A DNA stretch of 64,000 nucleotides. It comes from an uncultured Verrucomicrobiae bacterium (GTDB lineage Bacteria > Verrucomicrobiota > Verrucomicrobiia > Chthoniobacterales > UBA10450). Shown one piece after another: positions 28,129 through 34,308 of the stretch (the first letter of the stretch is position 1; each line of letters opens with the position of its first letter). Both the position numbers and the translations under genes were made by a program. The DNA lies in assembly GCA_963772365.1 (NCBI GenBank), contig CAVYXA010000001.1, positions 1,696,001-1,760,000 on the forward strand, given 5' to 3'. Under the pieces are notes generated by a model. That model made no database searches. It saw nothing but the letters and a program-made list of their open reading frames with translations, and was not told where the DNA came from.

Positions 28129-29193
28129 ATGCCGCGATTGCATCGACAAGATTACCGGGACATCGAACGAATCATCGAGTTTGATTTTGTCCGCGCGACA
28201 GAAGCCGCTGCGCTCAATTCCCTGCGGTGGCTCGGGCGCGGCGACAAGGAGGCGGCAGACGCTGCGGCCTGCGACGCCATGCGAGGAATGTTCGATTTGA
28301 TGAACATCTGTGGCGAGGTTGTTATCGGTGAAGGAATCAAAGACGAAGCTCCCGGGATTTTTAAAGGCGAACAACTTGGGACCTGGTTACCAGGCGCACC
28401 GCAGTTCGATATCGCCATCGATCCAATCGATGGCACCACTAACATCTCCAAGGGCGCGCCAAATTCGATCAGTTGTATCGCGGCAGCCAGCCCGGAAGAA
28501 GGAGTGAAAGTCGCTTTGCGAGACGTCCCCAGCTTTTACATGTCGAAGCTGGCCTACGGACCACGGGTGCTCGAATACATGAAAAAACGCGGTGATTCGC
28601 TTAACCTGGACGCGCCGATCGCCGAGACTCTGGCAATAGTTGCCCGCGCTTTGGAGAAACGGGTCCAGGATATCGTGGTGATGATGCTGGATCGACCACG
28701 GCACAAGGAAATTGTCGAACAGATTCGCGCGGCCGGCGCATCGTTACGTATGATCGGGGACGGCGATATCGCTGCGGCCATGGCGCCATCATTACCGGAG
28801 AGCAATGTCGATCTTTACATGGGCATCGGTGGTTCACCCGAAGCCGTATTGGCCGCGGCCGGGATCAAATGTCTCGGGGGAGAAATGCAGTGCAAGATGT
28901 GGCCACGTGACGAAAAAGAGAAAAAGAAGTTGATCGACGAAGGCTGGAAAAAAGATCTCGATTGCATCTATTGGGCCGACGACCTGGCTAATGGCCAGAA
29001 CATCGTTTTCTGCGCCACCGGAATTAGCGACAGCGCCCTTCTACGCGGAGTAAAAGGAATGGGAACAAAAGCCGTTACCCATTCCATTTTGATGCGAGCC
29101 AAAAGCAAGACCGTGCGTTTCATCCGCGCCCTGCACGATTTGCAAACCAAGACAATCCGGTTGCGTTCCGATAAAAGGGAACACTTGCTTTGA
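28129..29193 (+). CDS. glpX: Fructose-1,6-bisphosphatase class II
   Basis: RATEAAA, GRGDKEAADAAA, VVIGEG, DIAIDPIDGT, DGDI, GGSPE, ATGIS. Confidence 0.95.
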   Translation: MPRLHRQDYRDIERIIEFDFVRATEAAALNSLRWLGRGDKEAADAAACDAMRGMFDLMNICGEVVIGEGIKDEAPGIFKGEQLGTWLPGAPQFDIAIDPIDGTTNISKGAPNSISCIAAASPEEGVKVALRDVPSFYMSKLAYGPRVLEYMKKRGDSLNLDAPIAETLAIVARALEKRVQDIVVMMLDRPRHKEIVEQIRAAGASLRMIGDGDIAAAMAPSLPESNVDLYMGIGGSPEAVLAAAGIKCLGGEMQCKMWPRDEKEKKKLIDEGWKKDLDCIYWADDLANGQNIVFCATGISDSALLRGVKGMGTKAVTHSILMRAKSKTVRFIRALHDLQTKTIRLRSDKREHLL

Positions 29194-29239
29194 GGAAGCC
29201 GCGGTAGTGTTTGTTCATTGTCAGGTCGGGGAGGCGAAT

Positions 29240-30085
29240 TCCACAACCCTCACCTGGCGGCGAAATCGATTACGATACACCTACGACCGGGCCTCCAACG
29301 TGAAGAAGCGGATGAATTACAAGAACGGCTCGTTTGTCAATTACACTTACGACACCGCCGATCGGATGAGCGATCTGGACATTTATCTCTCGGCATCGGT
29401 CCGGTTCTCGCATGAGCATTTTACGCTGGACAATATGAACCGGCTCACCGCCGTCGCCCATACCCAGGGCAACACCACCAACGATTCATACAGCTATTAC
29501 GCGGATGGCCAATTGCACACTGCCGCCTACGGCTGGACCACACGGGGGTTCACCTACAATCTGGATGCCGCGGGTAATCGCACCAGTGTGATCGATCAGG
29601 GCGTGACCAAGAATTATACCCCGAATGCGCTCAACCAATACACCGCTGCCGGGACAGACGCGGTGGCCAACGGAAACGTCCACGAGATCTCGACCTACAA
29701 GGGTGTGCTTTACAAATATTATGGCGACACCTGGCTTTCTTCAGCCACTGCTTTGGTCAACAATGTCTCCACCAAGTACGAGCTGTTCTACGATGCACTG
29801 GGCCGATGCGTGGAGCACAAGACCACCGTCGGAACAAACAATCCCACGAAGAATTATTATCTGTTCGATGGGGAGCATTGGACGGTGGAATACGAGACCA
29901 ACGGCTCGACGATCAAGAGCACGATGGTCTATGGCCTCGGGATCGATGAAGTGATCGCCCGCGCGATTGCCGGTGGTCAATACTTCCTGCCGGATCGCAA
30001 TGCCAATATCGCGGTAGTCACCGACATTACCGCGGCGGTGCTGGAGTCGTATCGCTATGACGCATTCGGCTTGCCGTCAGGATAG
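29240..30085 (+). pseudogene. RHS/YD-repeat protein fragment truncated at the start of the RHS-associated core
   Basis: YTYD repeats, LDAAGNRT, YDALGR; ends YRYDAFGLP directly at the first transposase-end repeat; no credible start. Confidence 0.85.
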
Positions 30086-30121
30086 AAAGATAGGGGTCAG
30101 GCATCAATTCTGGATAGAAAG

Positions 30122-30416
30122 ATAGGGGTCAGGCATCAATTCTTGACAAGTAGCACTGGTGGGGTAAAAGAGCGGCTGTGGCCCGTAGTATTTGCATCGA
30201 ATATCCGGGGGGTGCCCGCAAGGTTTGTATTGCAAAGGTGATTTGGGAGCAGACGGTGGTGTCACAAAAATGGTTGGCGGACCGACTTGGAATGAAGAGC
30301 GCAGCGAACGTGAGCCAGCAGCTGCGTCGGCACCGGCCAAAATCGAAGCGATCGGATATCCCGGCTTCACTGCATAAATGGCTCTCTTTAGTCAAGAATT
30401 GATGCCTGACCCCTAT
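30122..30416 (+). mobile_element. Internally deleted mini-copy of the Y1 element (both ends present)
   Basis: Left end 30122-30147, right end 30391-30416; about 30213-30416 nearly identical to 32769-32971; in-frame 74-aa ORF 30178-30402. Confidence 0.9.
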
Positions 30417-30458
30417 TCCTATTCCCCTATTCCTATTCCCTATTCTATTCCATCGCCA

Positions 30459-30953
30459 ATGAGATCTCCCCGGTCAGCGATTGGGCTTATCGTGGCTGCA
30501 ATTCTATGCTTCGACATTGCGGCAATGGCTACGCCGGAAAAGCAGTATAACGTTCGATACCGGTTCCAAGTGACTGATCGGCCTGATCAGCAACGGTTCG
30601 TGTTGACTCTCAGATCCGCAGACAAGAGGCCCATCTGTATTTACCGCGACAATTGGCCAAATGGATTTGGCCAAGTCAATCTCGGCGCTATGCGAGTAAC
30701 CCTTAAATCGTCGGAGGGAGAAATACGTGCCCATGACACGAATTTTGGGTTTTGCGCAGGTGACGCAAGCTGCTACATCCGTATCTTGCCGGGGGGAACG
30801 TTGACCGGTTTTATCGGCTATGAGCAATTTGGTAAACCGAAGACAATTGCCAAACTCGCTCGCCGTGAATTGCGTTTCCGCGTCTCGCCTATTGTGTGCG
30901 AAAAATGGCCGCCACCGCCGCCGCGATTACCGCCCTACGCACGCGGCCGTTAA
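30459..30953 (+). CDS. Exported hypothetical protein (possible orphan RHS immunity protein)
   Basis: Hydrophobic signal peptide after ATG 30459; lies between element ends in an RHS locus; immunity role is inference. Confidence 0.55.
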   Translation: MRSPRSAIGLIVAAILCFDIAAMATPEKQYNVRYRFQVTDRPDQQRFVLTLRSADKRPICIYRDNWPNGFGQVNLGAMRVTLKSSEGEIRAHDTNFGFCAGDASCYIRILPGGTLTGFIGYEQFGKPKTIAKLARRELRFRVSPIVCEKWPPPPPRLPPYARGR

Positions 30954-31019
30954 CGAGCGCCGGGGAGATAAGATAGAAGATAAAGATAGGGGTCAGAAGA
31001 TAAAGATAGGGGTATAAAG

Positions 31020-31175
31020 ATAGGGGTCAGGCATCAATTCTTGACAAGCAGCACTGGGGTGGTAAAACTACCGGGCGAGTCTGGAACGGCAGGCGCACGA
31101 TGTCTCCAGAGCGGAGCAAGGCCTGCGAGCGGCCGGAATCACGCAACAAGAATTACCCAAGCTTTCCGGAGCCGA
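31020..31175 (+). mobile_element. Partial mini-copy of the Y1 element (left end only)
   Basis: Left end 31020-31045 joined to sequence matching about 32648-32767 with a small internal deletion. Confidence 0.85.
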
Positions 31176-31290
31176 CCTTCGGATGCCGGAATATTCCAAG
31201 CTCGACCAGCCATGACAATTCGGACGCTTGTTCTTACATGAAAACATATCGATTCCTTCGGATAGGGAAGATAGGATAGGGGTAGGGAAG

Positions 31291-31493
31291 ATAGGGGTCA
31301 GGCATCAATTCTTGACAAGCAGCACTGGGGTGATAAAACTACCGGGCGAGTCTGGAACGGCAGGCGCACGATGAAGAGCGCAGCGAATATGAGCCAGCAG
31401 CTGCGTCGGCACCGGCCAAAATCGAAGCGATCGGATATCCCAGCTTCACTGCATAAATGGCTCTCTTCAGTCAAGAATTGATGCCTGACCCTA
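31291..31493 (+). mobile_element. Second complete mini-copy (MITE-like, about 200 bp)
   Basis: Left end 31291-31316, same first junction as the 31020 copy, second deletion at an ATG microhomology, right end 31470-31493. Confidence 0.9.
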
Positions 31494-31576
31494 CTCTTCC
31501 TACTCTTGACCCGTATTCTTTCTCTCCTAAGTTCGTTTCGACGAGCCGCCAAAACCAGCACGCGAGGGCGCGTGCG

Positions 31577-31849
31577 CTACCCTAACGAACCGAATAGCAA
31601 TCCTAGGCCGTAGGTGACGACGGCGACGATGACGCCGATCCAGGTCATTTCCAGGCCGGAAGCCCACCAGGAGCGGATCGTGATTAGTGATTTTAAGGCG
31701 CCGACGGCAAAATGGGCGAGCAGACTAATCGCAAATGACTCGAGCACGGCGTCGAGTCCGCCGGAGAAAAAGAATGGAATGATCGGAACGAATGCACCGA
31801 TCGCGGTGGAAATTGCGGCCGAGAATGCTGACGTCCAATAATTCGGAAT
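31577..31849 (-). pseudogene. 3' fragment of a VIT1/CCC1-family transporter gene
   Basis: Minus-strand translation WTSAFSAAISTAIGAFVPIIPFFF...HFAVGALKSLITIRSWWASGLEM...TYGLGLLFG; 5' end cut at the element's left-end flank. Confidence 0.8.
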
Positions 31850-31854
31850 AGAGA

Positions 31855-32971
31855 ATAGGGGTCAGGCATCAATTCTTGACAGGATAGAGTTAGGGTAGTA
31901 GTGAAGGCGAGTGGCGCGCAGTATTCGAATCGAGTCTCCCGGTGCTTTCTATCACGTGATGGCGCGTGGGAATCGGCGGGAAGCGATTTTCCGGAGCGAG
32001 GCGGACCGGCAACTGTTTCTCAGGACGCTAGGGGAAGTGTGCGCCATGACCGGCTGGCGCGTTCACGCCTGGGTATTGATGAGTAATCATTATCATCTAT
32101 TTATCGAGACGCCGGAAGCAAACCTGGTGGCCGGGATGCAATGGCTCCAAAATACATTCACTCGCCGCTTCAACACGCGGCATCGAGTTTGGGGCAGGCT
32201 CTTTGGAGATCGTTACAAGGCGGTGGTAGTGGAAGGAAAAAGCGGTTATTACTATGAGACGCTGCTGGATTACATTCATCTCAACCCGGTGCGGGCCAAG
32301 CTGGTGCAGCCGCGGCGCAAGCAAAGCGTGCTGGATTACAAGTGGAGTAGCGTAGCCGGAGGACATGCCTTGCCTGGGTCTAAGCGCGGTAAATGGCTGG
32401 CTTCAGAAGCGGCCTTGGCGGCATTTGGATGCCGGGATACGGCGAGCGGTCGGCGCAAGTGGGTGGAACGGCTGGATCGGCGCGCGGTGGAAGAGGAAGC
32501 GCAAAAGTGCGGTCTGATTGGGTTGCCCAAAGAAATGGACGCGCGCTGCAGTCATTTGCGACGAGGCTGGTACTGGGGCAGCCAGGCTTTTGCCGAGAAG
32601 ATGCTGAAGTTGGCTGGAGGAGCGCTCAAGCGAGATCGCAATCGAATCTACCGGGCGAGTCTGGAACGGCAGGCGCACGATGTCTCCAGAGCGGAGCAAC
32701 TGTTGGAGGAAGGCCTGCGAGCGGCTGGAATCACGCGGCAAGAATTACCCAAGCTTTCCGGAGCCGATGCCCGCAAGGTTTGTATTGCAAAGGTGATTTG
32801 GGAGCAGACGGTGGTGTCACAAAAATGGTTGGCGGACCGACTTGGAATGAAGAGCGCAGCGAACGTGAGCCAGCAGCTGCGTCGGCACCGGCCAAAATCG
32901 AAGCGATCGGATATCCCGGCTTCACTGCATAAATGGCTCTCTTCAGTCAAGAATTGATGCCTGACCCCTAT
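31855..32971 (+). mobile_element. Full-length Y1/HUH element with 26-bp inverted hairpin ends (ATAGGGGTCAGGCATCAATTCTTGAC)
   Basis: Ends at 31855-31880 and 32946-32971 are exact reverse complements; TTGACA formed at the left end; transposase stop lies inside the right end. Confidence 0.9.
31911..32957 (+). CDS. REP-associated/IS200-like Y1 tyrosine transposase with C-terminal HTH
   Basis: YHVMARGNRR, LMSNHYHL (HUH), LFGDRYKA, YIHLNPVRA (catalytic Tyr), YKWSS; C-terminal SQKWLADRLGM HTH-like segment. Confidence 0.92.
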   Translation: MARSIRIESPGAFYHVMARGNRREAIFRSEADRQLFLRTLGEVCAMTGWRVHAWVLMSNHYHLFIETPEANLVAGMQWLQNTFTRRFNTRHRVWGRLFGDRYKAVVVEGKSGYYYETLLDYIHLNPVRAKLVQPRRKQSVLDYKWSSVAGGHALPGSKRGKWLASEAALAAFGCRDTASGRRKWVERLDRRAVEEEAQKCGLIGLPKEMDARCSHLRRGWYWGSQAFAEKMLKLAGGALKRDRNRIYRASLERQAHDVSRAEQLLEEGLRAAGITRQELPKLSGADARKVCIAKVIWEQTVVSQKWLADRLGMKSAANVSQQLRRHRPKSKRSDIPASLHKWLSSVKN

Positions 32972-32974
32972 TCT

Positions 32975-33464
32975 CCTATTCTCCCTGAATGCTGCTCGCG
33001 CCGACGAATGAAAAACGTGCTGATGGCTCCAGGCGCCAATCCCGTAGCATCCACCGCCACGGTGCTTTTAGGATTGTCCGACCCAGGCTGGCGGCTTTGA
33101 AAACGACGCACCACCTCGGCCAAAACTTGGGAAATTACTTGTTCCTCCAAACGCAACATAAACCGAAAGAGCGTGCTGTAATCAGGCACAACAGGGAGTT
33201 CGAGCGCTCGTCTCAACTCACGATGTTCGGCCAGCCGAACTTCCGCCGCGCGGAACGTCCAGTCCTCGTAACGCATTAAACACAAAATGGCCAGTAGTTG
33301 CGGCTGAGTAAAACGCTGTGGCGAAAAACGATGAGTGTAAGCAGGCACAACTTCCCGGCTCACTTCCAACGCCACACGGGCAAACGGCACAAGTCCAACT
33401 TCGCTCATGCCCTCCCTACTTATACACAACAACAGATAGGTACAAGTACCTTTTCAACAGAGCC
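32975..33464 (-). mobile_element. Truncated IS4/IS5-type DDE insertion sequence (left end plus N-terminal transposase part, ATG 33408)
   Basis: FTQPQLLAILCL, VPDYSTL, VAVDATG (first DDE Asp); IR-like GGCTCTGTTGAAAA at 33451-33464 (minus); cut by the Y1 right end. Confidence 0.8.
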
Positions 33465-33496
33465 ACCCGTATTCTTTATTTCCTACAGGAAAGGCG

Positions 33497-34105
33497 ATGA
33501 GTGAGCGAGCGCACCGACCACAACGGCCAGGTGTGAGCTGCAGTGAACGATATAAACGACCTCTATTTTGGACGCGACTCGGCTGCATTCCGCTTCTCGC
33601 ATCCATCCATTTCGTTGCTTGCCTTGAAGCTTTTGCCGGTGTGCATTTCGCGAGCCTCGCGGACGTGAGCCACATTCTCCGCGACGAACGCTTTGAACTT
33701 GTCCACGACGTGCGTCAAATCTCTGCCCGCGATTGGGCCAGCACGGGCGTGCTGCCGCAAGGCCGAAATATTACCTCTTCGATGGTTAATCCCGGGGAGG
33801 CTTACCAGAGCGCCGATTTCGGAACTGGCAAGCTGCCACTTCGCCAGTTGCTCGTCGCGGCCAAAAACGGTGAACACGAGGTCCTTTGCTTCTGGCAGGG
33901 ATCACAGGGAGGTCCTTGGCTCCACGTGATGATGATCGAACGCCGCAAACCGAAGTCGGCCCTCATCTTTTCCGCTATCATGAACAACGATATAGCGCAC
34001 GATAAGTGGACGGGGGCGGAAATAAAGCGACACGTCATCCAGGGAAAGATGGAGATCCTTATTTCAGCGGAGCATCCAGGGGCTTATGATAACAGGCTTC
34101 CGTAG
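33497..34105 (+). CDS. Hypothetical protein (possible orphan immunity protein)
   Basis: 202-aa ORF with AGGA upstream and a hydrophobic segment near the N-terminus; directly followed by an RHS core remnant. Confidence 0.5.
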   Translation: MSERAHRPQRPGVSCSERYKRPLFWTRLGCIPLLASIHFVACLEAFAGVHFASLADVSHILRDERFELVHDVRQISARDWASTGVLPQGRNITSSMVNPGEAYQSADFGTGKLPLRQLLVAAKNGEHEVLCFWQGSQGGPWLHVMMIERRKPKSALIFSAIMNNDIAHDKWTGAEIKRHVIQGKMEILISAEHPGAYDNRLP

Positions 34106-34113
34106 CGCGAGGG

Positions 34114-34220
34114 GTTTTCTCTTCACTGGGAGAGAATACAACTCCCAATTCGGTTTCTACAAGGACAGAGCCCGCGCATATCACCCCGTCCTCGGTCGCT
34201 TCATGAGCGAAGACCCGAAG
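34114..34220 (+). pseudogene. RHS-associated core remnant
   Basis: Translates FLFTGREYNSQFGFYKDRARAYHPVLGRFMSEDPK; absent from the ORF track. Confidence 0.85.
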
Positions 34221-34308
34221 ATGCACTATCGAAAGCCGCCACCATAGAATCTCTCTGCTCGACATCGGCTCGACCCTCGTTCAAGATCGACATCGAACCT
34301 TCGCGCTT

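Follow-up and report, generated by a model that had tools for sequence, protein, structure and literature searches.

The closest described relatives of the element examined here are the TIRtrons and their TIRYT transposases (Di Nocera et al. 2013, PMC3733652), which correspond to subclass 2.1 of the TnpA-Y1 proteins (Quentin et al. 2018, PMC6006769). In the available text of these two papers, the group is described as having in common NH[YF]H, Y[IV]HLNP, and SS motifs, a DnaA-C/HTH tail, GGGGWSAS inverted ends whose copies occur both solo and grouped, as they do here, and an absence of repetitive extragenic palindromes (REPs); the text of the second paper places subclass 2.1 proteins in ~15% of the species sampled. 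The same portions of text urge further analysis and make no mention of outer partial copies of the ends, of the tip position, or of the cut site, and we found no cut site or mechanism for subclass 2.1 proteins in the open-licence literature. Here, we analyzed a 64,000-nucleotide (nt) stretch of the genome of an uncultured Verrucomicrobiae bacterium (the window; coordinates without a prefix are window positions, and C1, C2, C3, and C5 are contigs of the same genome, G000). It contains an intact Y1/HUH transposase gene of the TIRYT type and, within positions 30080 to 32985, seven copies of a single 23-bp end, GGGGTCAG-N10-TTGAC, with short tandem arrays of partial end copies ("stutter") lying just outside them. 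The element type is known; the additions of this locus are a bounded, sequence-blind window from -5 to -13, outside the end, in which the repeated units begin, and tests of microhomology and polarity. The arrays are likely to be scars of the element's DNA-nicking enzyme that mark where it cuts.

The transposase gene (31911 to 32957, + strand) encodes a protein of 348 amino acids with a match to PF01797 (E = 6e-12), the HUH motif NHYH at residues 59 to 62, and the Y motif YIHLNP at residues 121 to 126. H60, H62, and Y121 are invariant across 19 homologues, as are W145, S146, and S147 of the SS motif (19/19). By annotation, homologues are mostly from Verrucomicrobiota. The N-terminal part has a fold match to TnpA-REP (4er8, E = 2.8e-7), so that the fold is the same as in REPtrons, and a search of solved structures by sequence returned only a weak 4er8 match. 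For the C-terminal tail, a Pfam search gave no match and Foldseek returned nothing at E ≤ 0.001, with DnaA ranked first. A model of this tail (residues 248 to 348; a single-sequence prediction with a pLDDT of 63) aligned with the DnaA DNA-binding domain (3pvp) at a Z of 8.6 and a root mean square deviation of 3.1 over 89 positions; the top four structures were all DnaA domain IV, and the next, unrelated one had a Z of 5.5. The window ends fit GGGGWSAS inverted repeats, with the GGGGTCAG ends at 31858 and 32968 forming a perfect 26-bp pair. Because of the NHYH, YIHLNP, and SS motifs, the TnpA-REP-like fold, the DnaA-IV-like tail, and the GGGGWSAS inverted ends, we assign the element, on sequence and model features, to the TIRtron/TIRYT type, TnpA-Y1 subclass 2.1. 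Its score against NCBIfam REP_Tyr_transpos was 63.3 bits, below the cutoff of 80. IS200/IS605 elements (subclass 1.1) also have a Y1 fold and make no target duplication, but they differ in having a YxxxQ motif, no tail domain, dissimilar left and right hairpin ends, and guide-specified fixed cut sites, whereas the protein described here has YIHLNP instead of YxxxQ, is not core-only at 348 amino acids, and scores 21.4 bits against an NCBIfam cutoff of 55.

For comparison across the family, we listed 276 distinct ends with 80 bases or more of flank: 23 in this genome, 113 in other genomes, and at least 140 in metagenome contigs. A preliminary description of this stretch had given the end as 26 bp, but the fixed core is 23 bp, and the ATA preceding GGGG varies among elements (TA occupies -2/-1 in 116/276 ends listed). 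It had also proposed that each end folds as a REP-like hairpin. This was not upheld: the end folds at only -1.1 kcal/mol, the next stem pair (+9/+18) can form in 28/59 ends, and a GTAG or GGAG foot is present in 6/276 ends listed. The ends are poor hairpins with a weak stem of 4 to 6 bp, and not REPs. The spacer between GTCA and TGAC is 12 nt in 59/65 ends found via the protein, and this fixed spacer with a variable interior would suit a double-stranded protein-binding site. When the TTGAC of the end was considered as a -35 box, a consensus scan gave no promoter there. Minimal elements of 50 to 53 bp, consisting of two ends only and forming near-perfect palindromes, were seen at L092:301-353, L200:301-352, and L286:1501-1550, and one left end lies within the transposase gene itself (L001:3219).

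The array strings quoted in the preliminary description are all present at the coordinates given there, as is the exact 32-bp tandem duplication at 30080 to 30143, which consists of 13 outer bases and 19 bases of the end. Its statement that such arrays stand outside every Y1-transposase terminus holds for all window ends but not for the family, where 63/276 ends listed have an exact tandem duplication in contact with the boundary (shuffled sequence, 0.6%; a control point inside the end, 5/276). Most window ends are also not termini of a transposase, as only two of the seven flank the intact gene and the remaining five bound its internally deleted derivatives. Exact duplications were found at 13/23 ends of this genome, 20/113 of other genomes, and 30/140 of the metagenome ends listed, and stutter is common across the family, not universal. 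Variable-length tip copies lie outside the ends far above chance: the 6-mer over the outer boundary recurs outside in 83/276 ends listed and inside in 10/276, compared with 5/276 in a mirror test, 2.8% for swapped and 2.2% for shuffled sequence, and 9/336 at unrelated GGGGWCA sites of this genome. Each of the four GA-rich arrays of the stutter type in this genome adjoins an end (the check spanned 40 bases, and the end of one array, known from the end list, lay just beyond), and GA-rich arrays independent of the ends, a possibility raised in the preliminary description, were not seen. Viral contigs contained 89 motif matches, with no transposase match at any locus, and a single duplication (start -4, end +2) at a match that is itself an end pair; among 14 held-out new genome ends, there was one exact duplication (start -8, end +7). 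These two lie in the expected range, with numbers too few for replication. One site differs in unit number between assemblies (two versus three, L080/L177). At another host site, two ends with different interiors (L146 and L169) have tips 2 bases apart, and in the array at L098:301 the units begin inside the G run and not outside it. We found no description of outer stutter in the open-licence literature, although figures or supplements of the two family papers could hold such flanks.

The duplicated products have a regular geometry in their start window, end positions, chance-level microhomology, one-sidedness, and sequential stacking. Each unit repeats the segment between position -a (outside) and position +b (inside), and we scored 55 nonredundant innermost events; where the overlap reached 5 bases or more, a duplication was treated as an iterated repeat and omitted. 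All 55 events had their innermost possible start at -4 to -13, and in 1/55 the outermost possible start lay beyond -13; simulated starts at -14 to -30 were detected at a rate of 76 to 94%. Over all 94 events, starts peak at -5/-6 and -12/-13, and we saw no base motif at the unit start. The preliminary description had placed the reaction at a fixed site and suggested checking whether stutters occur only on the outer side and from a common point; the outer-side position was confirmed, whereas a single fixed start was ruled out by the spread from about -5 to -13 without a base motif. Units are 5 to 37 nt long and end chiefly at 0 to +4, with further ends at +7/+8, +14, +19, and +25. Junction microhomology averages 0.93 nt, compared with 0.91 nt for simulated random joins, and is absent in 27/55 events, which argues against slippage, since slippage would need more. 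The array at 30966 to 31030 unwinds fully by exact duplications in five steps and that at 30414 to 30450 in four. Among 169 unstuttered ends, none had a duplication confined to the flank that ended at -14 to -3.

Comparison of tips at unrelated sites points to the same interval. In 113 sibling pairs (same interior, unrelated sites), no more than 13 to 14 outer bases are common, with a peak at 5 to 6, and 8 or more are common to 20/113 pairs but ~0% of non-siblings. The Rhs host fragment stops at 30079, which puts the junction exactly at -13 in the outer unit, and its paralog at C3:405422 matches up to that point and then diverges. A VIT-like host fragment ends at 31846, where the paralog at C3:397245 continues differently, so the element-derived bases begin at -11, or up to -13 if two G residues are common. 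The 289-bp derivative in the window has an interior identical to that of the copy at C3:399197-398907, and the tips differ. Duplication starts, sibling tips, and paralog junctions are thus three lines of sequence evidence that point to the -5 to -13 window. No fixed-position direct repeat was found by inspection of 51 left/right pairs for a target-site duplication, and we found no head-to-head circle junctions. We dropped the idea that a "frozen" stutter at a 3-G end signals inactivity, because the adjoining flank is the same in the two copies over 171 bp, which marks them as recent.

The explanation we favor, with a probability of roughly 0.56, is that the arrays are stacked boundary-spanning duplications that arise when the transposase nicks ~5 to 13 nt outside GGGG, the host copies inward, and the strands are re-joined. 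It is backed by the HUH fold with a DnaA-IV tail, the one-sided recurrence, the bounded starts, the chance-level microhomology, and the junctions at -13 and -11, and the transposase would be the maker of the arrays. The DnaA-IV-like tail would bind double-stranded GTCA-N12-TGAC, and the cut would be set by distance and not by sequence. The catalytic tyrosine would then keep hold of the 5' terminus created at -a, on the strand that reads toward the element, while the 3'-OH of the flank is extended by a host polymerase that halts, or whose product is re-cut, at or inside the bound end (stop positions mostly 0 to +4, then +7, +14, +19, and +25). Once the enzyme re-joined the 3' terminus so made to the original 5' terminus, the segment from -a to +b would have been added on the outside, with the end itself left intact for further rounds. 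In a variant with an identical product, a nascent strand would stall and the sister single strand would be nicked. The earlier proposal, in which each cycle of HUH nicking, extension, and re-joining adds a unit outside the end, is consistent with all tests, apart from its fixed site and REP-like hairpin, and it fits because of the one-sidedness, the chance-level microhomology, the sequential reducibility, and the confinement of arrays to ends. The break at -a is likely also the element's true tip in transposition, in which case each end that moves to a new site would take 5 to 13 variable outer bases along and make no target duplication.

Related chemistry has been described in other HUH systems. 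In the model for amplification of bacterial interspersed mosaic elements (BIMEs), as drawn in Fig. 7B of Ton-Hoang et al. (2012, PMC3333891), one unit is added when a nicked strand is extended by the host and attacks the Tyr-5'P link; this is the chemistry proposed here, but there whole BIMEs are amplified. TnpA-REP cuts at a variable distance, as seems to occur here (Corneloup et al. 2021, PMC8266576), and REPs are described there and in PMC3333891 as single-strand hairpins that have a GTAG foot and are cut at the C-T or C-A step. In contrast to REPtrons, the ends here have a weak stem of 4 to 6 bp and a fixed spacer, with units of 5 to 37 nt whose starts lack a base motif. The "fuzzy ends" of Replitron-1 (PMC10288648) provide a case in which an HUH transposon carries variable parental flank to a new site, as is proposed here. 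Replitron-1 differs in being eukaryotic and in having direct terminal repeats, one fuzzy end, and target duplications, and the part of its text that was available contains no stacked partial copies.

Several observations weigh against the nick-and-copy explanation. An intact gene fails to predict stutter in five relatives, since G030 has an intact gene and 0/12 stuttered ends, and G001, a genome of the same genus, has no gene match, yet a 6-mer recurs at 4/14 of its ends. Characterized TnpA-REP relatives cut at C-T or C-A dinucleotides (PMC8266576), so a cut placed without regard to sequence would be unusual. The arrays at 31260 to 31293 and 31847 to 31857 consist of tip pieces and were not unwound from the innermost end. 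The sibling pairs are nonindependent, and 37/113 have no common bases, many apparently through G-run shifts. Finally, an empty site of a whole element was found in 0/60 pairs, so the lack of target duplication rests on the 51 inspected left/right pairs. The +7 peak corresponds to a C-T step on the opposite strand, which keeps alive an inside-out version of events, in which the enzyme nicks the CCCC strand at +b, outward synthesis halts 5 to 13 nt outside, and the strands are re-joined. This would give the identical product and account for every event spanning the junction, and both +7 and 0 are C-T steps on the CCCC strand, the dinucleotide of TnpA-REP (PMC8266576). We nonetheless consider it unlikely, as b is scattered (0 to 9, 12, 14, 19, and 25), +14 and +19 are not C-T, and the hard stop at -13 is left unexplained while sibling tips and host junctions independently put a break there.

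Slippage or template switching by the host alone at a protein-bound G-rich end, with the transposase at most a roadblock, would account for the failure of stutter to track the intact gene, and perfect short repeats can expand after they form (L009, L015, and L080/L177). We regard this as quite unlikely in view of microhomology that is at chance level and absent in half of events, the sharp -5 to -13 start window, and the near absence of stutter where viral contigs match the motif by chance (1/89, itself an end pair). Insertion into another end copy, or unequal strand exchange with one, without new synthesis, appears similarly improbable. Ends do gather in nested groups, the host at the Rhs junction terminates in GTCA like the +7 joints, and TnpA-REP swaps strands between different sites in vitro (PMC3333891). 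Against exchange, the reciprocal product, an end cleanly lacking its first bases, was not seen: GGGTCA was absent in 4/218 ends (a count unbiased for this genome only), of which one is split by an insertion and three are apparent point mutants. The absence of head-to-head circle junctions and the exact copying of the adjacent tip in the units are further points against it. An assembly or sequencing artifact at G runs or inverted repeats is very improbable, because stutter is also found in contigs named in the style of short-read assemblers (5/22 ends), in addition to this genome and the 30/140 metagenome ends listed; one array is unchanged at two loci (31493 to 31527 and C3:397600), and chance motif matches are nearly free of stutter.

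If the nick-and-copy explanation is right, the stutter predicts a cut from sequence alone (on the GGGG strand, 5 to 13 nt outside, by no sequence rule, and with inward copying), and an HUH enzyme would work on symmetric ends in double-stranded form and set its cut by distance, in contrast to the hairpin-and-guide logic of IS608 and TnpA-REP. This would also account for the ragged tips and missing target duplication of TIRtron elements. A broader and more tentative proposal, which we think is possible but hold to be the less probable outcome, is that TIRYTs are tethered, sequence-blind HUH nickases in which the DnaA-type domain would recognize an operator in double-stranded form, with the tyrosine cutting anywhere 5 to 13 nt outside it and joining the 5' tip to any available 3'-OH. 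Each end would then have recorded its own past reaction cycles in order, and unrelated host fragments could be spliced together by single ends, as may have happened in this genome's Rhs toxin/immunity mosaics.

The cluster of ends sits inside an ~5-kb island (29192 to 34257) that G001 does not have; in that genome the two host flanks adjoin, with the sequence found beyond 34257 coming straight after a glpX-like gene. From the left, an Rhs-core fragment (29207 to 30079, +; PF05593; paralog C3:406269-405422) is truncated at the first tip, where duplication reduction identifies one outer unit (-13 to +19, 32 bp) plus a 13-nt tip (30080 to 30124, +; paralog C3:405422). The nonautonomous 289-bp deletion derivative follows (30125 to 30413, +), with cores at 30125 to 30147 (+) and 30391 to 30413 (-), and then an array of four successive exact duplications by duplication reduction (30414 to 30450, -). 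A passenger open reading frame without a Pfam or NCBIfam match (30459 to 30953, +) lies between two outward-facing tips, the second of which carries five successive exact duplications, again by reduction (30966 to 31022, +). This array adjoins a derivative without a right end (31023 to 31175, +) made up of a left core (31023 to 31045) and deleted transposase pieces. The array of tip pieces at 31260 to 31293 (+), irreducible from the innermost end alone, precedes a 199-bp deletion derivative (31294 to 31492, +) with cores at 31294 to 31316 (+) and 31470 to 31492 (-; first G changed to A), and the array at 31493 to 31527 (-) is the one with an unchanged second copy at C3:397600. The autonomous element has a left tip with minimal stutter (31847 to 31857, +; paralog C3:397245 diverges), a left core at 31858 to 31880 (+), a right core at 32946 to 32968 (-), and a right-end stutter that is an exact 8-nt duplication (32969 to 32985, -). 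A protein search of the 3.35-Mb genome found no second full-length copy of its transposase.

Beyond these features, the island's left edge carries a 59-bp repeat that opens with GTAG (29200 to 29258) and has five further matches in the genome, four of which extend into a longer common element. A GTAG-footed REP-like hairpin lies 3' of the VIT-like gene (31529 to 31582; ~9 further genome matches), and a DUF772 transposase fragment lies immediately outside the right tip (32968 to 33432, -). The segment from 31483 to 31846 is identical to C3:397608-397245 over 171 bp and then differs at 24/193 bases, a pattern which suggests that an incoming fragment recombined with a resident gene. At C3:397000-406500, 29207 to 30079, and 34116 to 34223, Rhs-core sequence, apparent C-terminal/immunity cassettes, and gene fragments are bordered by these ends, and at both Rhs-bearing clusters it is as if single ends spliced host pieces together. 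A 1.3-kb insertion sequence, IS3-like by inspection, is present in two copies, of which that at C3:398907-397608 splits one end with a 3- to 4-bp duplication and that at C3:401770-400468 comes after a stuttered end remnant. Solo stuttered ends without an adjoining transposase remnant occur at C1:1140420, C2:55904, C3:669846, C3:672003, and C5:293836, and some solo stuttered ends lie immediately upstream of host genes.

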